Below, piece by piece: positions 53,711 to 61,647 of a stretch of 64,000 bases of DNA; the stretch's first letter is position 1; each line of letters starts with the position of its first letter. Position numbers and translations under genes: made by a program. The stretch covers positions 78,165-142,164 of the forward strand of contig JBBTUG010000012.1 in the NCBI GenBank assembly GCA_038063895.1, in the 5' to 3' direction. A model generated the notes under the pieces. The model was given only the letters and a program-made list of their open reading frames with translations. It did not search any database and had not been told where the DNA came from. This DNA comes from Patescibacteria group bacterium (GTDB lineage: Bacteria > Patescibacteriota > WWE3 > JAMCXX01 > JBBTUG01).

Positions 53711-55420
53711 TTAAATATCTAGAATAACCGGAAGGACTAAAGGGTGGCGGAGGGTTTGGCGGGAAACAAATTTCATCAATTCTTTCCGCAGACAGCGGAT
53801 AGCTTCCGTCCGGTTGCTCCTGACTAACGGTTCGTTCTCCGCAAAAAAACGCTTAACTTCTGTTTCCACTTTCGCGAAAAGAGCCTCCCCGCGGTCTTCC
53901 TGGGTAAAACCACGGCTTAAGGCTTCGACTTTAACCGGAGTGAACCCGTCTTTGAGAACCACCGAAACGACCAACACGCCGTCATTAGCTAAGAGCTGAC
54001 GGTCCCGCATAATTTTTCCGCCCAAGTCCTCAACCCCGGAGCTGTCAACGTAGACGCCGGTTAACGGAATTTTTTCTCCCCGCAAGGCTTTCTGCCCGGA
54101 CGTAAAGCGCAAAAATTGACCCGCCTCCATCTTAAAAACATCTTCGGGATGGACCCCTAACGGCTCAACCATCTTCGTGTACGCCTGAGCATGGCGTAAG
54201 GTGCCCCCGATCGGAATAAAGTAGCGGGGGGAAAGCAACGAGGCCAGCATTAATAAGTCGCCGCGGGAACCGTGACCGGAAGTATGCAAATTTTCCTGGG
54301 TGTCGTAGTAATAAACATCCGCCCCCAATCCGGTTAACCGGTCAACTAGACTATCAACGTGCTCTTTGGCGCCGGGAGGGGCCGGGTCGCCGGAAAAAAC
54401 CACCGAGGCTCCGGGAAGGATGGAAACGAAGCGGTAATCACGGCGGGCTAACTTTGCTAAAACCGAGTTAGGCTGGCCGTAGCAGCCGGTCACGATATAA
54501 AGAATCTGGGATTGCGGAAAATCCATTGCTTGTTCCGCCTTGATCCAGGTTTTCTTCACCAAATGCAGATAACCGAGGCGTCCGGCCACCAGCGTATTCC
54601 GCTCAATCGAGCGGCCGAGGAAGCAAACCCGACGGCCAAGTTTTTCGGCGACGTTGATCGCCTGCTGCATCCGAGAAATATTGGAAGAGATGGTCGTTAA
54701 AAATATCTGCCGTTTGGCTTGGGAAAATATATTGAAAAATTCGCCGCCGATTTCCATCTCGGAACGGGTGTAGCCGTCGGTCGAGGCTCCGAGCGAGTCC
54801 GTAAAAAGGGCTAGGGGGCGGCCGTCGGCCAGGGTTAACATCCGGGCCACATCAAACGGCTTATCCATCACCGGGGTCCAGTCGAATTTAAAATCGGCGA
54901 CGTGGAAAATTTTTCCCACCGGCGTTTCGATGCACAGCGCCGTCGAATCCGGCACAGAATGATTAATCCGGAAGGGACTAATCTTAAAAGGCCCTAGGGT
55001 TACGGAGTCTTTTTCAGGATCGAGCACCCGGATATCGCGGTCGTGCAAATTAAAATCCTCCAATTTAGCTTTAATAAATCCGGCAACGAGTTTTGAAGCA
55101 TAGACGGGAACGTGTAAATCTTCGAGAAAATAAGGCAGGGCGCCGAAGTGGTCTTCGTGGCCGTGAGTTATTACAACTCCTAAAACATTATTGCGCCGCT
55201 CAAACAGATAGGAGAAATCGGGGAGGACAATTTCGACGCCGGGCATATCCGAATCAGGAAAATCGATCCCACAATCAACGACGAGAATCTGCCCGTTGTA
55301 TTCGTACAGGTGCATATTTTTATTTACGTCGCCCGCCCCGCCCAAAGAGAGGTAACGTAGCTCATTCGCCGGATAAGTTTTGTGTTTCTTTTCTTTAAAT
55401 TGCATAACTATAACCCGCAT
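53711..55420 (-). CDS. rnj: Ribonuclease J (metallo-beta-lactamase / beta-CASP)
   Basis: VVITHGHEDHFGALPYF. Confidence 0.85.
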   Translation of the reverse strand: MRVIVMQFKEKKHKTYPANELRYLSLGGAGDVNKNMHLYEYNGQILVVDCGIDFPDSDMPGVEIVLPDFSYLFERRNNVLGVVITHGHEDHFGALPYFLEDLHVPVYASKLVAGFIKAKLEDFNLHDRDIRVLDPEKDSVTLGPFKISPFRINHSVPDSTALCIETPVGKIFHVADFKFDWTPVMDKPFDVARMLTLADGRPLALFTDSLGASTDGYTRSEMEIGGEFFNIFSQAKRQIFLTTISSNISRMQQAINVAEKLGRRVCFLGRSIERNTLVAGRLGYLHLVKKTWIKAEQAMDFPQSQILYIVTGCYGQPNSVLAKLARRDYRFVSILPGASVVFSGDPAPPGAKEHVDSLVDRLTGLGADVYYYDTQENLHTSGHGSRGDLLMLASLLSPRYFIPIGGTLRHAQAYTKMVEPLGVHPEDVFKMEAGQFLRFTSGQKALRGEKIPLTGVYVDSSGVEDLGGKIMRDRQLLANDGVLVVSVVLKDGFTPVKVEALSRGFTQEDRGEALFAKVETEVKRFFAENEPLVRSNRTEAIRCLRKELMKFVSRQTLRHPLVLPVILDI

Positions 55421-55423
55421 CTA

Positions 55424-56041
55424 TCATATCAAACTCATCTGATTCTCGTCGTCTTTTTTCTTCCCTACGACTTTCATCTCACTCTTATCCATCTTCAAAA
55501 TCGCAGGGATTCGGCGGAACTCGGCCTTAAGCTGGAGCAGAACCTTTTCCGACCGAAGCGCGGCCGCCGGGTGATAAAGCGGATAAATTATTTTTCCGGA
55601 CACATAAAACGGTTTGCCGTGGTCGCGGGAAATTTTGCCGTCAGGCAGAAAATGTTCGAGAGCATAACGGCCGAGGGGGATAATCATCTTCGGGCCGATG
55701 GCCTTCAGCTGCTCGATTAAAAAAGCTTTACAGGTCCGGACTTCATCCACCATCGGATTGCGGTTTTCCGGAGGCCGGCATTTAACTACGTTGCTGATCC
55801 AAACTTTTTCCCGCCGGGTTCCGATCGAACGCAGCAGCATCTCCAAAAGATCCCCCGCCCGGCCGACGAAGGGTTTGCCTTGCTGATCTTCGTTGTAGCC
55901 CGGACCCTCACCAACAAAACAAATCTGGGCGTTCGAGTCGCCGACGCCCGGAACAGCGTAGTGTCGGGTCCGGTAAAGGCGGCAAAGTTTGCAGCGAATT
56001 ATTTGGCGGGCAAGCTGTTCCAGCAGTTTCTCTTTATGCAT
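55424..56041 (-). CDS. Uracil-DNA glycosylase, family 4
   Basis: CKLCRL...AQICFVGEGPGYNEDQQGKPFVGRAGDLL. Confidence 0.85.
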   Translation of the reverse strand: MHKEKLLEQLARQIIRCKLCRLYRTRHYAVPGVGDSNAQICFVGEGPGYNEDQQGKPFVGRAGDLLEMLLRSIGTRREKVWISNVVKCRPPENRNPMVDEVRTCKAFLIEQLKAIGPKMIIPLGRYALEHFLPDGKISRDHGKPFYVSGKIIYPLYHPAAALRSEKVLLQLKAEFRRIPAILKMDKSEMKVVGKKKDDENQMSLI

Positions 56042-56110
56042 TTGGAAAAAGTTTCTTCAGCGATTCAACAAGGAGGATAGCACAGATGAAAAAAGTTAAA
56101 AAGGCAGAAA
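55975..56110. repeat. Direct repeat copy R1 (~135 bp; UDG 5' end plus upstream region), about 85% identical to 58405..58540
   Basis: ttgcatttggaaaaagttt(ct/aa)tcagcgattcaa(c/g)aaggag(g/a)atagcacag is shared nearly exactly; similarity extends into the first ~25 UDG codons. Confidence 0.8.
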
Positions 56111-56127
56111 AGTGGAAAAGGTAACTT

Positions 56128-56958
56128 CTACAGCCTATGCAGTATCCGGTCACACTCCCCAACACCAACCTCTTGACCGTGCTCGGTCAATAAAGCTTGT
56201 TCCGTAAGACACTCTAATACGGGATAGTAGAAGTGAACGTCCGGTTCCCATTCTTTGTTAGTTAAGACCAAGTCGTAGAGATTGATTAAGGCGGTGTACT
56301 CTTGGGGAAAGAGGTGGTTGACCTTAACCGGCGAGGCTCCGTCCAATTTCCAAACATCCTTCCAGCGGAGAAGATCCCGCTCCATTTTACCGTTACCGGA
56401 AAGGGAGTACTCATGAACGATCTCCTCTTTTATATCACCGTCTAAATCCCGGATTTCGATTTTATTGCTGTTCTCGATCAGCTTTAGGATCAGCTTGAAC
56501 CGCCCCTTCCCGTACGAGTAAAGATAAAAAGGATGAACCCCGGCGGTCCCGGTATTGGCGTACTGGACCAAGAAATAACTATCCCCACCGGTGCTGCTAC
56601 CGCCGAGGTTGTCAAACCGAAACCAGTCAAGGTATTCTCCGGGCACGGGAAAGTAGTTGTCTCTTAGATAAGGCTTACCCTCGGGCAACCATTCGATAAA
56701 ATTATTTTGATAGTCGATCAGGGCTAGTCCGGACAGGTTGGCAATAAGATTATAGACGGAGGCGACTTGCCGGTTCTCACCGAGATTGCTAGTCATTTCG
56801 ATACTTAACGATTTGGCCGGATAATTTCGCAGCAAAAGGTAGCGGCGCGTATCTTCAATTCCTAAAACCTTTCGCTGTGAACGTTCTTTAAGCGCCCAGA
56901 CAGTTACCGCTAACACCAACAGGGCCAGGCTTAAATAAATTATTTTCCTTCTGCCCAT
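56128..56958 (-). CDS. Membrane-anchored FG-GAP-like protein, paralogous in architecture to 1995..2618; partner of the upstream lysozyme-like gene
   Basis: N-terminal anchor IIYLSLALLVLAVTVWAL; IRDLDGDIKEEIVHEYSL FG-GAP-like motif; 19-nt overlap with the upstream gene. Confidence 0.6.
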   Translation of the reverse strand: MGRRKIIYLSLALLVLAVTVWALKERSQRKVLGIEDTRRYLLLRNYPAKSLSIEMTSNLGENRQVASVYNLIANLSGLALIDYQNNFIEWLPEGKPYLRDNYFPVPGEYLDWFRFDNLGGSSTGGDSYFLVQYANTGTAGVHPFYLYSYGKGRFKLILKLIENSNKIEIRDLDGDIKEEIVHEYSLSGNGKMERDLLRWKDVWKLDGASPVKVNHLFPQEYTALINLYDLVLTNKEWEPDVHFYYPVLECLTEQALLTEHGQEVGVGECDRILHRL

Positions 56959-58301
56959 ACCGTCTCTCCTTGACTGTCAGTTCCTTCCAGATGAACCTTC
57001 CAGGTATCAAGAGTGTAGTTTTCAGCTTGGGCGGAAGCGTTGTAATAATAGACAGCCTCACGCCAAGACAGCCACCAGCGCCGGTAAGGAGGGTTGAGCG
57101 ACTCGGTTTCCGGCCCGCTGAATTGTTGAGCCTTGTGGTAGAGCCAACGGACACCCCAAAAAATACTTTCCTGCGGTGTGGTCACTTTAATCGGTAGTCG
57201 TTCCGGCGGGTAGCTATAGCTGAGATGTTTATAGACAGCTTCATTAATGAACTCGTTGGCGGCGTTTTTAAATTTCTCTTCCGGTTTCATGTGTTGGGGG
57301 GTCTTATTTCTCTCATCCCAAACCTGCATGACGTCCGGAAAAGACGGATAGCCGGTGGAGGACTTGCCGTAACCCATCCGACTCTCAATGTAGATCATGG
57401 CTTTGACCAGATCGGGATTGAGCGGATCGGGTGGCGGAAAATTTTGAGTGAGGAAGAAATTATTCCAAAAGCGAGTTGCCTGCTCAATCGCCGTATCATA
57501 CTTGTTATAGCGGTTATCCTTATACTCTCTTATCTTACCCGCCGTTTCGGAAAGATCCAGTTCGACGTAGTCAACGTAGGGCATTCGGTCGGCGTAGATT
57601 TCAACGTAATGCAAACCTTGAGGTAAGTTCGTTCTAAAGCTGGCAGTTGTCTGTTTATTCAACAGCAGAGAACCGGCAAAGTACCAGAAACGGTAAAACC
57701 ACTCCCGCGGTAACGATTCTTTAGGCTTCTCTTTTAGTTCCCTAAAGTTGGTTTTGACCTCGCCGTCAACCACGATTTTAAGGTCATCGCTATCCCTGTA
57801 TCTTTTCTTGACGATCGCATTAACAGTTAAGGCCGCGAGCGGTATGTTATCAAGGATAAAGGCTAGCCACGGACGGCGGTCCCCATCCTCCGCCGAGCTT
57901 TTGACCCCTATTGACGCAGCTGGTCCTGGCTCCAAGGTGTAGACTTCCAAGCTTTCAAACGTGGCCGTACCGGGAGGGTTTTCCGCGGAAAGAGTTACCT
58001 GATGATCTCCGTCTTTGAGGAAAGTCAGAAAATAGGTGGTCTGGGAGAGGTTGTAGGACTTACCGCCGGAAATCGCGGCCGGCGAGTCAACGAAACGGCT
58101 GGGATTTCCCAACTTGGGATAAATCTTAGCGTCGATCTGGATGGTTAAATCTTCATCATCGGTGGCGTTCGGTCCCAGCTGTTTTTCGCCCTTGGCTCGA
58201 GCCGTGAGTTTAAGGAGGTATAAAGAGGAAGAACTAGAGAACGTAATCTTTTCGTTTCCCTTAATTGTTCTTTTATTCTTATCCGCAAAGATGAGTTCCA
58301 T
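56940..58301 (-). CDS. Two-domain protein with no signal peptide: conserved N-terminal domain shared with 859..1998 plus a divergent C-terminal lysozyme-like (GH23-like) domain
   Basis: N-terminal alignment to the 859..1998 product (MELIFADKNKRTI...ARAKGEKQLG...DSPAAISGGK...AEDGDRRPW...KRYRDSDDLKIVVDG...RFWYF...GLHYVEIYADRMP). C-terminal IYIESRMGYG...DVMQVW resembles the E-S...G.MQ. lysozyme-like catalytic region. Confidence 0.75.
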   Translation of the reverse strand: MELIFADKNKRTIKGNEKITFSSSSSLYLLKLTARAKGEKQLGPNATDDEDLTIQIDAKIYPKLGNPSRFVDSPAAISGGKSYNLSQTTYFLTFLKDGDHQVTLSAENPPGTATFESLEVYTLEPGPAASIGVKSSAEDGDRRPWLAFILDNIPLAALTVNAIVKKRYRDSDDLKIVVDGEVKTNFRELKEKPKESLPREWFYRFWYFAGSLLLNKQTTASFRTNLPQGLHYVEIYADRMPYVDYVELDLSETAGKIREYKDNRYNKYDTAIEQATRFWNNFFLTQNFPPPDPLNPDLVKAMIYIESRMGYGKSSTGYPSFPDVMQVWDERNKTPQHMKPEEKFKNAANEFINEAVYKHLSYSYPPERLPIKVTTPQESIFWGVRWLYHKAQQFSGPETESLNPPYRRWWLSWREAVYYYNASAQAENYTLDTWKVHLEGTDSQGETVWAEGK

Positions 58302-58404
58302 TTCGCCTTACTTTCGGTACCTGATTCTAGATTAAGGTACGTAGCTGAAGGTTGTCAAGATAAACTTTTAAGTGAAGCCGCACTGATTAGAAAACTCGGG
58401 TTCC

Positions 58405-58540
58405 TGGCCCGGGGCAGTCAGCAAGTCTGGTAGCGGACCACCTGTTTGGCAATCTGCTCGAGGAGTTTTTCTTTTTGCATTTGGAAAAAGTTTAATCAGC
58501 GATTCAAGAAGGAGAATAGCACAGCGGTAGGAAGTTAAAA
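58405..58540. repeat. Direct repeat copy R2 (see 55975..56110)
   Basis: Aligned by eye to R1; located between the HD-like gene's 3' end and the lysozyme-like gene's start. Confidence 0.8.
58418..58480 (-). pseudogene. Truncated duplicate of the UDG 5' end (MQKEKLLEQIAKQVVRYQTC*), inside direct-repeat copy R2
   Basis: 20 codons homologous to the UDG N-terminus MHKEKLLEQLARQIIRCKLC, then TGA. Confidence 0.75.
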
Positions 58541-58547
58541 AGAAGAA

Positions 58548-59162
58548 TTAATAACCTAGTTTACTAAGGGCTAGGTGATACCAGGGTTTAGCTACCTCTT
58601 CGGCGTTTGGCGAGGTAATTCGGTTGTACATCCAATCAAATTTTTCTTTTACCTTTTCTTTACCTCTCACCGCGACCTGCTCCGTTACGAAGTGATCGAC
58701 TTGGGTTTCTAAGAAGCTGACGCTGTCTGCATCTTTAAGAAGATTTTGATCGGGGTTACCACCAATCTCGTGTTTAGAAATGAGCATCGCGACTCTGGCA
58801 ATTAACTCTACCGGAGCCTCAATTCCGATAAGAAAATCTGACATGATTTTCGCGCCTGTCTCTTGGTGATAAATAAGATGCCCTTTATCCTGGAAGCCTT
58901 TTTCTGACTTGTCAATTTTGTTGTAAGTCGAATCACGATAGGCCCTCTCAATATCGTGGGCATACGCCGCGATTAAAAGAGCTTCGTCCGCCTCGGGCTT
59001 AAGCTGTTTAAGCCAATAAACGGTGCGGTCAAAATGCCGCAGACCTTGCGCCTTTCCGGCTTTCTGGTGTACCTCATCAACAAAATTCCTGACTAACGGA
59101 AAATAAATCTCAACCACAACATGATTATACAATATAAATAGGTCGGAATAACGGTTAGGCAC
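58548..59162 (-). CDS. Hypothetical protein, possibly an HD-like hydrolase
   Basis: Contains ...AAYAHDIER... H..D-like motif; family assignment uncertain. Confidence 0.35.
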   Translation of the reverse strand: MPNRYSDLFILYNHVVVEIYFPLVRNFVDEVHQKAGKAQGLRHFDRTVYWLKQLKPEADEALLIAAYAHDIERAYRDSTYNKIDKSEKGFQDKGHLIYHQETGAKIMSDFLIGIEAPVELIARVAMLISKHEIGGNPDQNLLKDADSVSFLETQVDHFVTEQVAVRGKEKVKEKFDWMYNRITSPNAEEVAKPWYHLALSKLGY

Positions 59163-59196
59163 TTTATCAAATGGTTAAACCGGATTACAATTTAAC

Positions 59197-59577
59197 TTGA
59201 TGAGCAAAGGCCACCATAAAAGCAAACTGCAGATAGCAATAGATCGGGCTTGGAAATTTTACGAAGAATGGCGGGGACACGAACCAGTAACACCGGCTTT
59301 CGGAGAAAAAGTCTACGCCTCACGACTCGGCTGGGACCATATCCTTAATCCCTCGCACCGAAGGAGTAAGGCAGATAAGATTCGTCGGCTTGATGCCTTG
59401 CCTCTTGCTAAGAAACTTCTCACCGTGGCAACAACTTACCAGGAGTATCGGTACGCCGATGGATTTCACTACTACGCCTTACAAGCTGAACTGGGTGGGA
59501 AGAGGATAAAGGTTATCGTAAGTTCAAAAAAGAAAAGTGGAAGGAAATACTTCCTTTCGGTGATTATCTTAAGGTAG
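59197..59577 (+). CDS. Hypothetical basic protein (126 aa)
   Basis: ORF only; Lys/Arg-rich; no recognisable motif. Confidence 0.35.
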   Translation: MMSKGHHKSKLQIAIDRAWKFYEEWRGHEPVTPAFGEKVYASRLGWDHILNPSHRRSKADKIRRLDALPLAKKLLTVATTYQEYRYADGFHYYALQAELGGKRIKVIVSSKKKSGRKYFLSVIILR

Positions 59578-59678
59578 AGTGTCTTTCACTTTGGCGACGT
59601 GCCGTTATGAGGTCAGGGTCAAGCCCTTCACCCTACCAATGACATTCTATACTGCAACCCAGGAAGTGTCAAACAAAA

Positions 59679-60728
59679 TCACCAACTCGGCAGAAAGTCC
59701 TTAATATTTGTGTCGTTCAGTATGAATTTTGACTCCGTCCCAGCGGATTCGACTATTTTCCGCGCGGCCTTCCGGCAGATGCCGTGAATTGTCCGGTCCA
59801 GCGTTCTGATCCCGGCGTCGTACCCCAGGGGGCGAATGATTTTCGGCCAAAGATCATCCGCAATCGTAATTTGCTCCTTGTCTAAACCCGATTCCCTTAG
59901 GCCCTTCGGCAGCAAGTAGTCGCGGCCGATAACCTTCTTCTCTTCATCGGTATAGGCCGGCATTTCGATAATTTCCAGCCGGTCAATGACCGCGGTGGAA
60001 ATTCCACCGGTGTTGTTCCCGCTGCAGATAAACAGAGCTCCCGAAAGATCGAAAGGATAACCGAGAAAATAATCGGTAAAAGCGTTATTTTGTTCGGGGT
60101 CCAGTAGTTCCAACAGAACACCCATAATTGATGCTCTGCCGGCCTCTGCCACCCGGTCAATTTCATCTAAAAGAATTACCGGATTCCGAACGCCGACCCG
60201 GGCGAGGTTGCGGATAATAAGACCCGGCTCCGCTCCCGGCAGGTAACGGGGTAGGCCGCGGAGCTGCGTTACCTCCCCCATCCCTCCCATCGCAATCCGG
60301 ATAAACGGCCGGGCAAGCGCTTCCGCAATTGAGGAAGCCACTGAAGTTTTTCCGATGCCGGGCAAACCGACAAAGCACAGAACCGTCGCCCCGATTTTTT
60401 TCTTTCCTCGGTTAAGATTGAGCACGGCGATGTACTCCAGCAGCCGATCTTTAATTTTTGGCATGCCGTAATGGTTCTTATCCAAAACAGCCCGGGCGTT
60501 GCTCAGATCGAGATTATCCGGCGACTCTGCCACCCACGGCAGACTGACCACCCACTCGAGATAATGCGAAACGCTTTCGTACTCCAACCCGTAGCCGCTC
60601 GCTTCCGTCATCCGGGAGAGCCGTTCCAACATCCCTTCTAAATGCAAACGCAAATCTGGAGGAATGCCGTTAACGGCAATCTTCGCTTGTAATTTTAAAA
60701 TTTCCGTTTTATTTGATTTATTTTCCAT
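59679..60728 (-). CDS. Lon-like AAA+ ATPase module lacking both the N-terminal LAN domain and the C-terminal S16 protease domain (truncated Lon or stand-alone Lon-like ATPase)
   Basis: Lon hallmark YLEWVVSLPW, Walker A GLPGIGKTS, Walker B ILLDEIDRV, sensor-2 GIRTLDRTIHGICRKAA. The ORF ends right after the AAA+ alpha-helical subdomain. Confidence 0.7.
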   Translation of the reverse strand: MENKSNKTEILKLQAKIAVNGIPPDLRLHLEGMLERLSRMTEASGYGLEYESVSHYLEWVVSLPWVAESPDNLDLSNARAVLDKNHYGMPKIKDRLLEYIAVLNLNRGKKKIGATVLCFVGLPGIGKTSVASSIAEALARPFIRIAMGGMGEVTQLRGLPRYLPGAEPGLIIRNLARVGVRNPVILLDEIDRVAEAGRASIMGVLLELLDPEQNNAFTDYFLGYPFDLSGALFICSGNNTGGISTAVIDRLEIIEMPAYTDEEKKVIGRDYLLPKGLRESGLDKEQITIADDLWPKIIRPLGYDAGIRTLDRTIHGICRKAARKIVESAGTESKFILNDTNIKDFLPSW

Positions 60729-61647
60729 CTATAGTTCCCTGTAACAACGTTCCGCTACTTACCGGCGTAACTACGAGCGCTTGGCCCCGAATTTTTCCGG
60801 AGAGCTTCCCGCCAATATCCGGACCAAAAACAGTTGTCAGCAACTGACCAAGATTATCATGACTGGCGGCAAAAAAGAAAAACTGCCCCTGGTGGGGTAA
60901 TCGCCGCCACGCCTCGGAGAACGGGGTGGTCAGGGACAGGTTGAGATGTTTCTTCGCCTGAGTTTGAACCGTTAACTGCGCCAACTCGGGGGAATCAGTG
61001 ACCAGCAGGTATTCTCCGATGATTAAGGGCGAGAAACCCTGCGTTTCAAGGCTATTCTTTACCTCATCCACCTTTTGCTCCACAAAACTTTTCGCTTTTA
61101 TTTTTCCCAGGAAAGCGGAGCTACTCCCGGATTTGAAAAAAGCGAAATCCGGCTCGAGGTATGTCTGGGCTTCCGCCAAAGTCAGGCCGGTAATCTTTTG
61201 GAATTTTAGGCTCTGTCCTTCCGGAATAATCTTCGAAACAAAGTCAGCGAAACTCCGGCCAAAGACGGCCGAATCGGCCGTATCCGGGACGAGCTCGGCG
61301 AGGGATAATTTAGCCCAGGGCAGATCAGGAGCGGCAAAATGAAAATTTTGCAACAATACGGCATTTTCCGGCCGTCCGGACGGAAGTTTAGAAGCACGGA
61401 ATGAGCCCGACCGAAACCAGTAGAAACCAGTCCCGGCGATTGAAAAGACTAAAATCAGCAGGAGAAAAAAGAAAAGCCGCCCTCTTAAACTAAAAACGGA
61501 AGTGACGGAAACTACGAGTGGTGGTGTTTTAACGGGAAAACTGTTGTCCGGAGTTTGCTCTAAGGCCAAACCACAGTGGTAACAAAAACAGGCGGTTGGA
61601 GACTCAATCGTACTTCCGCAGTGGGCGCAGATGCGGTATCGCAGCAT
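60718..61647 (-). CDS. Membrane protein with N-terminal Cys4 zinc ribbon, one TM helix and an extracytoplasmic domain (anti-sigma-factor-like topology)
   Basis: CAHCGSTIESPTACFCYHCG, then FFFLLLILVFSIAGTGFYWF. Confidence 0.5.
   Translation of the reverse strand: MLRYRICAHCGSTIESPTACFCYHCGLALEQTPDNSFPVKTPPLVVSVTSVFSLRGRLFFFLLLILVFSIAGTGFYWFRSGSFRASKLPSGRPENAVLLQNFHFAAPDLPWAKLSLAELVPDTADSAVFGRSFADFVSKIIPEGQSLKFQKITGLTLAEAQTYLEPDFAFFKSGSSSAFLGKIKAKSFVEQKVDEVKNSLETQGFSPLIIGEYLLVTDSPELAQLTVQTQAKKHLNLSLTTPFSEAWRRLPHQGQFFFFAASHDNLGQLLTTVFGPDIGGKLSGKIRGQALVVTPVSSGTLLQGTIDGK

Follow-up and report, generated by a model that had tools for sequence, protein, structure and literature searches.

How does the start of a housekeeping gene come to lie, cut off from the rest of that gene, on the far side of two other genes? 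The question is raised by contig JBBTUG010000012.1 of a Patescibacteria group bacterium (assembly GCA_038063895.1), of which we analysed a stretch of 64,000 nucleotides (nt), positions 78,165–142,164 of the forward strand, hereafter called the window. It contains an intact gene for a family-4 uracil-DNA glycosylase (UDG). The promoter region and first codons of this gene occur twice, once in place (copy A) and once as an orphan (copy B), and between the two lies a cassette of two genes encoding proteins of 453 and 276 amino acids (aa), here called 453 and 276. Weighing the sequence comparisons set out below, we put at roughly 60% the probability that copy B is the scar left when the cassette recombined between related lineages, anchored by homology and without an integrase.

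The host belongs to candidate division WWE3 (Patescibacteria). The nearest named homologues of its UDG come from WWE3, the resident UDG is itself annotated as that of a Patescibacteria group bacterium, and the contigs derive from Hainich groundwater metagenomes. Along the direction of transcription the locus reads AAA (an AAA+/Lon-lid ATPase gene), a 126-aa open reading frame (ORF), HD (a DUF4202/HD-domain gene), copy B, 453, 276, copy A running into UDG, RNase J and FtsK. All of these genes lie on the minus strand except the 126-aa ORF, which is convergent. Relatives are referred to by our numbers for contigs (L) and proteins (P).

The two copies are unmistakable. A repeat search returned one direct-repeat family of 137 nt (55967–56103 and 58406–58542; spacing 2439 nt, 75% ungapped identity). 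Copy A, searched by BLAST against the window, gave a single non-self match, 56009–56103 against 58448–58542, with 84.2% identity over 95 nt (E=3.8e-25); the first-pass annotation of this DNA had put the identity at about 85%, which is right for this best local segment. There is no third copy in the window, the other matches having E≥0.007 and at most 25 nt. Aligned in register, the homology spans 143 nt, from −62 to +81 relative to the UDG ATG. As that annotation had also read, copy B encodes the first 20 codons of a UDG followed by TGA; in this relic ORF the first Cys of a CxxC pair has become Tyr. The copies do bracket the two genes, together with a 41-nt filler, a promoter-like site and a 24-nt tail.

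The similarity between the copies is far from even. Identity is 13/18 in the left arm, 45/49 (92%) in a central core, 36/55 (65%) in codons 2–20 and 12/21 in codons 21–27, and the difference between core and coding arm is significant (Fisher p=0.0017). The core begins at the motif CTGTGCTATYCTCCTT, ends at ATGCA and contains TGTGCTATYCT; the longest unbroken run of identity between the copies is 18 nt. Located some 37 nt before the UDG ATG, TGTGCTATYCT is exact in L017, L020, L051 and L052/53; L021 has TATGCTATTCT in its place and L054 lacks it. Copy B, whose TGTGCTATTCT matches this motif, retains a complete UDG-type promoter-like site that reads towards the cassette, which may have consequences for the two genes.

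The outer edge of the repeat is equally telling. The UDG unit starts with CTTTTTAAC in copy A, in copy B and in L021, and with CTTTTTTAC at the matching point in L017. What precedes it is different in each setting: AAA in L017, the tail of 276 in the window and in L021, and the stop codon of HD at copy B. Because the unit begins at one nucleotide behind three different partners, HD and UDG may once have been direct neighbours.

Where did the two copies come from? The nearest distinct clade (clade X, or the sister clade) has UDGs 76–78% identical to that of the window; for P0002 the figure is 78%. Over the first 60 coding nt, copy B differs at 8 positions from L017 and at 9 from both L021 and L051, as against 19 from copy A, which in turn differs from members of clade X at 19–22. 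The coding arm of copy B is 85–87% identical to sister-clade UDG genes and 65% identical to copy A. The differences between copy B and the sister-clade genes are mostly synonymous, and 18 of the 20 residues of the relic ORF match the sister-clade proteins P0002 and P0003 (12 of 20 match the resident UDG). Both observations indicate that copy B belonged to a functional UDG in the recent past and did not arise by decay of copy A. Our proxy for synonymous divergence, the share of conserved residues encoded by identical codons (the identical-codon fraction), points the same way: by hand count it is 0.67–0.72 between the coding arm of copy B and the sister clade, which is cassette-like, and 0.46 for the coding arm of copy A, which is core-gene-like.

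The remaining segments tell a different story from the coding arm. In the 28-nt 5′ untranslated region (UTR) the copies differ from each other at 3 positions, and copy B differs from L017 and L021 at 19 of the 28. The tail and left arm of copy A, taken together, match L021 at 36 of 42 positions, which is cassette-level identity. Read from left to right, copy A therefore consists of a tail and arm like those of clade X followed by a lineage-specific UTR and coding region, and copy B of an arm of its own, the lineage-specific UTR and an X-like coding region. Such a reciprocal mosaic is the pattern that a crossover between two diverged UDG units would be expected to produce. The earlier suggestion that the cassette arrived with donor-derived DNA from beside a UDG gene fits the coding arm of copy B and falters at the UTR, whose sharing by both copies agrees with neither simple model unless a gene-conversion step is added.

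The cassette itself has a younger shared history than its surroundings. Between the window and L021, the identical-codon fraction is 0.71 for 453 and 0.76 for 276, rising to 0.88–0.92 over codons 121–240 of the latter. It is 0.66 for the 126-aa ORF, 0.54 for UDG, 0.51 for HD, 0.49 for AAA and 0.44 for RNase J. Nucleotide identity in a sliding window peaks at 95% within 276 and is about 65% at copy A and 65–75% in the flanks. We conclude from both measures that the cassette was shared between the lineages much more recently than the flanking genes. The edges of this recently shared segment coincide with the two repeat copies.

Moreover, the two genes travel together. They are paired in L021, and the pair recurs at 49–58% protein identity in unrelated neighbourhoods (L022–24, L057). 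The cassette has a promoter-like site of its own, with TTGACA...TATAAT at the equivalent position in L057; its −10 box is weak in the window, and a scan for consensus promoters missed it. The 24-nt tail behind 276 resembles neither the left flank of copy B nor L017. The evidence supports the 453/276 pair as a discrete, exchangeable unit with its own conserved promoter-like site, and the mobility that the first-pass annotation had proposed for it is upheld by the unrelated contexts, by this site and by a synonymous divergence lower than that of the flanks. The features of the locus are collected in Table 1.

Table 1. Position and strand of the repeat copies, the cassette and the neighbouring genes in the window.
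Feature	Position	Strand	Remarks
Copy A, live UDG 5′ unit (left arm, extended −10, 5′ UTR, codons 1–27)	55961–56103	minus	runs into the full UDG ORF
Copy B, orphan partial copy of the UDG 5′ unit	58400–58542	minus	begins a few bases past the HD stop codon
High-identity core of copy A (extended −10 motif to ATGCA)	56037–56085	minus	45/49 identical to the core of copy B
High-identity core of copy B	58476–58524	minus	window-type UTR
Relic ORF of copy B	58418–58480	minus	20 codons and TGA, MQKEKLLEQIAKQVVRYQTC
Extended −10-like motif of the UDG promoter, copy A	56074–56084	minus	TGTGCTATCCT; putative promoter
Extended −10-like motif, copy B	58513–58523	minus	TGTGCTATTCT; points into the cassette
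Intact family-4 UDG	55424–56041	minus	Pfam PF03167, E=2e-31
24-nt cassette tail, 276 stop codon to UDG unit start	56104–56127	minus	20/24 identical to L021
Cassette gene 2, 276 aa	56128–56958	minus	19-nt overlap with gene 1
Cassette gene 1, 453 aa	56940–58301	minus	two β-sandwich domains and a helical C-terminal domain (AlphaFold2 model)
Cassette promoter-like site (TTGACA, 17–18 nt, TTAATCT)	58329–58358	minus	conserved in the window, L021 and L056
41-nt filler, end of UDG homology to cassette promoter-like site	58359–58399	minus	
DUF4202/HD-domain gene (HD)	58548–59162	minus	PF13875, E=7e-15; left neighbour of copy B
126-aa ORF	59197–59577	plus	convergent with its neighbours
AAA+/Lon-lid ATPase (AAA)	59679–60728	minus	

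Is the repeat, then, a footprint that the cassette always leaves? It is not. In L021, a member of clade X, the order is AAA, a 125-aa ORF, DUF4202, 453, 276, UDG and RNase J, so that the cassette stands at the same place; the spacer between HD and 453 is 110 nt long, and copy B is absent from it. In L017/18/19, whose core genes are 92.5% identical to those of L021, UDG follows AAA after 88 nt, and a block of 3452 nt in L021 corresponds to 43 nt in L017. The 126-aa gene, HD, 453 and 276 are missing from L017 together, and the variable block is therefore larger than the two genes of the cassette. A further contig, L056, has an X-type AAA and HD (88% and 83% identical to L017 and L021) and no 126-aa gene. 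It combines these with a window-type cassette start, 96% identical to that of the window and free of differences over 86 nt, a further sign that modules are swapped here.

The junction between HD and 453 is where these genomes part company. The spacers of the window (copy B plus 41 nt), L021 and L056 are mutually unrelated up to the −35 box of the cassette site and homologous from there on; the unrelated part measures about 50 nt in L021 and about 190 nt in L056. A search for UDG remnants in the HD-to-453 spacers of L021 and L056 yielded nothing significant; of its eight tests a single one reached p~0.01, which we take as noise. The spacer of L056 (920–1110) contains a long, near-perfect and very stable hairpin, GGTCCCATTTTTG...CAAAATGGGAC, and folds significantly better than shuffled sequence (z=−2.4).

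On the other side of the cassette, UDG, RNase J and FtsK are syntenic in all relatives, and what lies directly upstream of UDG is highly variable: a small ORF ending in ...LENYAK in L020 and L051, AAA in L052/53, an MNT/HepT pair with small ORFs in L054. At least six fillings of the interval between AAA and UDG can be listed, namely nothing, the LENYAK ORF, the MNT/HepT pair with small ORFs, HD with the cassette, the four-gene block, and the four-gene block with copy B. These differing fillings mark the interval upstream of UDG as a hotspot of gene content among the WWE3 relatives. The first-pass annotation had reasoned that an old, fixed duplication would leave all relatives with the same arrangement; they differ. 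It had also anticipated empty sites at which HD is directly followed by UDG. None was found: the relatives show AAA next to UDG without HD (L017–19, L052/53), a small ORF next to UDG, a toxin–antitoxin pair next to UDG, or the full block without copy B. Two wider scans did not alter this picture. One of JGI metagenomes with HD gave 26 loci, 35–65% identical and in unrelated contexts, none adjoining UDG, 453 or 276; one of genome contigs with UDG gave only 43–53% identical UDGs of other phyla, which are uninformative on context.

How could recombination have produced this arrangement? We propose that the starting chromosome had HD directly followed by UDG, and that the 453/276 cassette, a self-contained transcription unit exchanged among WWE3 lineages, recombined into it with the UDG 5′ unit as the homology anchor, leaving copy B behind. 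Two routes can be envisaged. In the first, a circularised segment from an L021-like genome (cassette, tail and UDG unit up to codon 27) would have integrated by a single Campbell-type crossover in the conserved promoter and UTR core. In the second, a linear segment comprising the cassette and UDG onwards would have entered by homology-facilitated illegitimate recombination (HFIR), with homology in UDG or RNase J anchoring it on the right and an illegitimate joint to codon 27 of the resident UDG on the left. Either route would yield a complete UDG (copy A) and an orphan fragment (copy B) on the two sides of the cassette, would place the illegitimate joint at the 41-nt filler, and would need no integrase or transposase. 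Indeed, searches of Pfam, NCBIfam and PADLOC revealed no domain of an integrase, transposase or recombinase, either in the cassette itself or in the roughly 8 kb that flank it on each side. The cores of the two copies would have been alike already or would have been made so, for example by heteroduplex repair or by a short conversion tract bounded by the conserved motif and the region of the ATG. No clear step in divergence marks a right-hand crossover along UDG between the window and the sister clade.

Several observations weigh against this proposal. None of the relatives examined has the HD/UDG arrangement that it takes as the starting point. L021 has the cassette at this place and no copy B, a distribution that calls for an event confined to one lineage or for a subsequent loss. 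Both copies carry the window-type 28-nt UTR, which a donor resembling the sister clade would not have had; either route therefore requires a further conversion tract or a donor that has not been sampled. The 18-nt longest identity between the copies is short for a RecA-type crossover. The distances that separate the ancestries of the two copies are taken over 60–80 nt only, and the first 60 nt of UDG evolve more slowly in other pairs (6/60 between L017 and L051, as against 22% elsewhere). The closeness of copy B to clade X could also reflect a native, vertically inherited copy B and an incoming or anomalous 5′ end in copy A. Finally, contig L056 covers only 102 nt of the cassette and is possibly chimeric.

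Part of this evidence would sit well with a duplication inside the genome, which we regard as unlikely and yet as the strongest competitor. Here, a piece of about 145 nt from the promoter and 5′ end of the resident UDG would have been copied into the spacer between HD and a cassette already present, for instance when a polymerase switched templates in replication or repair, and would have given the cassette a second, UDG-type promoter; recombination with foreign alleles would later have changed one coding arm. Copy B would then be later than the cassette and specific to the window lineage, as the cassette of L021 without copy B suggests. A UTR shared by both copies and found in no sampled relative (3/28 differences as against 19/28) is the signature of a common origin in this lineage, and the extended −10-like motif of copy B is intact and correctly oriented. 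However, simple duplication predicts uniform similarity, and the arms differ by 28–35% and the core by 8%. The coding arm of copy B groups with the sister clade and not with copy A, and the left end of copy B falls on the canonical start of the UDG unit, which is unexpected for a randomly copied piece. Moreover, the cassette already owns a conserved promoter-like site and has no obvious need of a second, and at least two extra events have to be invoked.

Could the scar instead be old? The duplication would in that case have arisen when the cassette entered a common ancestor of the window and L017/L021, L021 would have deleted copy B afterwards, and gene conversion, or selection on two working promoters, would have kept the cores alike. 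The arms of the two copies differ by about 30%, close to the divergence of core genes between the lineages, and the position of the block and its outer limits are identical in the window and L021. We nevertheless consider such an age improbable. A pseudogene older than the split should have diverged from the sister-clade UDG no less than copy A has, and copy B is much nearer (8–9 differences in 60 as against 19–20, mainly synonymous); nor does the spacer of L021 hold any detectable remnant of copy B.

It is a little less probable still that the pair is a working switch. In such a RecA-dependent, integrase-free system, crossover between the 49-nt cores would excise the cassette as a circle carrying a UDG ‘handle’ and restore the HD/UDG junction, and the circle would re-enter related chromosomes at UDG. 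If this were so, the cassette would be mobile among WWE3 lineages and, through its handle, self-targeting; it could also enter by transformation, and the promoter of copy B would place it under UDG-type transcription.

Only a slim chance attaches to a conventional integrative element, in which the 49-nt core would be an attachment site (attL/attR), the integrase would be encoded elsewhere, and the cassette would be a small element that replaces the 5′ end of its target gene. The architecture is that of prophage e14 in icd: direct repeats, a completed gene with an orphan, and a near-identical core between diverged arms. Yet neither cassette protein nor any neighbour within about 8 kb has a recombinase domain, the core is not identical (4 differences in 49), L021 carries the cassette without a second site, and a scan of viral contigs turned up no relative of the 453-aa protein.

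Chance similarity or an assembly artefact can be set aside, metagenome assemblies though these are, given the E value of 3.8e-25, the in-frame UDG N-terminus, and the fact that region 55300–59300 is 100% identical in five longer assemblies, which come from separate projects and different assembly programs (ENA Hainich; Logan ERR3858136/8 and SRR32696707/09). Two shorter contigs are likewise identical across the part they cover, and exact-protein look-ups with UDG and HD returned strain-identical contigs only, all with the arrangement of the window and without population polymorphism. Two low-coverage Hainich contigs depart from this uniformity. L014 (1–140) has seven substitutions in the region upstream of UDG and in the UTR of copy A, one of which equals the base in copy B; L055 (599–653) has a mosaic HD gene with 89% nucleotide identity to the window and breaks off within the opening ~20 nt of copy B. 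At a coverage of 1–2, the differences may represent genuine variants in the population or errors in the reads.

Other candidate explanations of the repeat were rejected outright. A target-site duplication of a transposon or insertion sequence does not apply to a repeat of 143 nt whose copies are diverged and 75% identical, and there is neither a transposase nor an inverted repeat that pairs the ends of the cassette; the first-pass annotation had judged the repeat too long and too diverged, and we concur. Dispersed repeats of the repetitive extragenic palindrome (REP) or miniature inverted-repeat transposable element (MITE) kind are excluded by the count of exactly two copies in 64 kb. A structured RNA or riboswitch was rejected as well: Rfam gave no match at E≤1 over 55900–59800, ARAGORN found nothing, and the transcript of copy B folds no better than shuffled sequence (z=+1.0). 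On the plus strand of copy A (56070–56124), the promoter motif reads as a perfect Shine-Dalgarno sequence, AAGGAGG, with an ATG 8 nt further on and a mini-ORF of 12 codons, MKKVKKAEKWKR, ending in a stop codon. As copy B has CGG in place of this ATG, the mini-ORF is probably a product of chance and was not retained as a gene.

What might the cassette do? The 453-aa protein has no match in Pfam, NCBIfam, PADLOC or the sequences of the PDB, and the 276-aa protein has none in Pfam, NCBIfam or PADLOC. The AlphaFold2 model of the former (predicted local distance difference test score 79) matches only generic tandem β-sandwiches of a carbohydrate-binding-like type, with TM-scores relative to the query of at most 0.25. 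In other lineages of the candidate phyla radiation (CPR), its homologues align with about 55% of the query, and they contain cell-wall hydrolase domains, either SleB-type (PF07486) or SLT (PF01464). The family (P0121–P0240), which has no Pfam model, is widespread in Patescibacteria, including Gottesman-, Davies-, Roizman- and Collierbacteria. A conserved YxESR-like motif suggests that the domain shared by these homologues may itself be lysozyme-like. A role for the cassette in the cell envelope is our guess.

Upstream of HD, a second module may be mobile. The 126-aa ORF has 89% protein identity to its counterpart in L021, as against 69–77% for adjacent core proteins; it is absent from L056 and L017, and its only match is a sub-threshold one to Pfam LPD3 (E=8e-4). 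Antisense to its 3′ end, directly after the stop codon of AAA, is a candidate small RNA gene (59530–59672, minus strand) with a near-consensus promoter, TTGACA-17-TAGAAT (11/12). The predicted RNA has a multi-helix fold of about 65 nt with a closing stem of 9 bp (minimum free energy −28.1, z=−2.0), followed by a hairpin and a T-run. It is 87% identical to L021, where flanking core genes reach about 70%, and the changes in its closing stem keep pairing (A-U to G-U, G-U to A-U); there is no Rfam or tRNA match. The 126-aa ORF and the candidate small RNA may together form a module separate from the cassette.

The ATPase beyond it has 349 aa, lacks a protease domain and matches DolB weakly in PADLOC (E=7.5e-9). 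Its gene overlaps by 11 nt that of an upstream 309-aa protein without a Pfam, NCBIfam or PADLOC match. The pair (59679–61647, minus strand) is kept in those relatives whose contigs reach that far (L017–L021).

Most likely, then, copy B is a recombination scar of an ordinary sort, found in an unusual group of organisms, and not a new kind of mobile element. As a sequence-level example, it suggests that the episymbiotic, reduced-genome Patescibacteria of WWE3 remodel a chromosomal hotspot without dedicated mobile-element machinery, in that a housekeeping gene anchors the recombination by which modules pass from lineage to lineage, and an orphan gene start stays behind. Scars of this type could serve as markers for gene flow among groundwater CPR populations. 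They also call for caution in annotation, since the 20-codon UDG pseudogene comes with a live-looking promoter.

How does the arrangement compare with known systems? A transposon target-site duplication likewise places direct repeats on both sides of an insert; there they measure 2–14 nt, whereas the copies here span 143 nt and include a promoter and a gene start. In Campbell-type integration, a single crossover leaves the insert between direct repeats, each a hybrid of donor and recipient, one of them on the intact gene and the other truncated. That is exactly the topology of the window. The difference lies in the homology, which is short (143 nt, with 18 nt as the longest identical run) and diverged, and in a circular intermediate that is hypothetical.

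The closest analogue is the pair icd/icdC at prophage e14 (and also at phage 21). In E. coli K-12, icd and the pseudogene fragment icdC flank e14, and recombination between them would excise the insert and give a chimeric intact gene (PMC13626634). As in the window, the insert lies between a complete target gene and an orphan homologous fragment, and the copies, which come from different lineages, differ mainly by conservative or synonymous changes. By contrast, in E. coli it is the 3′ end that is duplicated and the element encodes an integrase; in the window it is the 5′ end with its promoter, the insert has two genes, and no recombinase was found.

The closest mechanistic precedent comes from HFIR, which has been proposed for orphaned gene fragments at type VI secretion system (T6SS) and Rhs loci (PMC5361080). 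At those loci, where orphan effector/immunity genes and Rhs 3′ fragments are left as scars, one end of the incoming DNA has a conserved anchor and the other is joined without homology, displaced fragments of former genes lie beside the new module, and alleles resemble those of other strains more than they do one another within a genome (PMC5361080), all as in the window. They are, however, polymorphic toxin arrays under diversifying selection, whereas the window, part of a reduced Patescibacteria genome, has a housekeeping gene of DNA repair as its anchor, and the event in it is read from sequence comparison alone. Given its mechanistic resemblance to icd/icdC at e14 and to the orphan fragments of T6SS and Rhs loci, copy B would not surprise a specialist, and finding it opens no long-standing question. 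Apart from an empty HD/UDG site, which none of the relatives examined showed, the hallmarks of a homology-anchored scar are present at this locus: a conserved anchor gene, another junction that is non-homologous and varies between lineages, a different ancestry for copies A and B, as judged from small numbers of differences, and a more recent shared history for the insert than for its surroundings.

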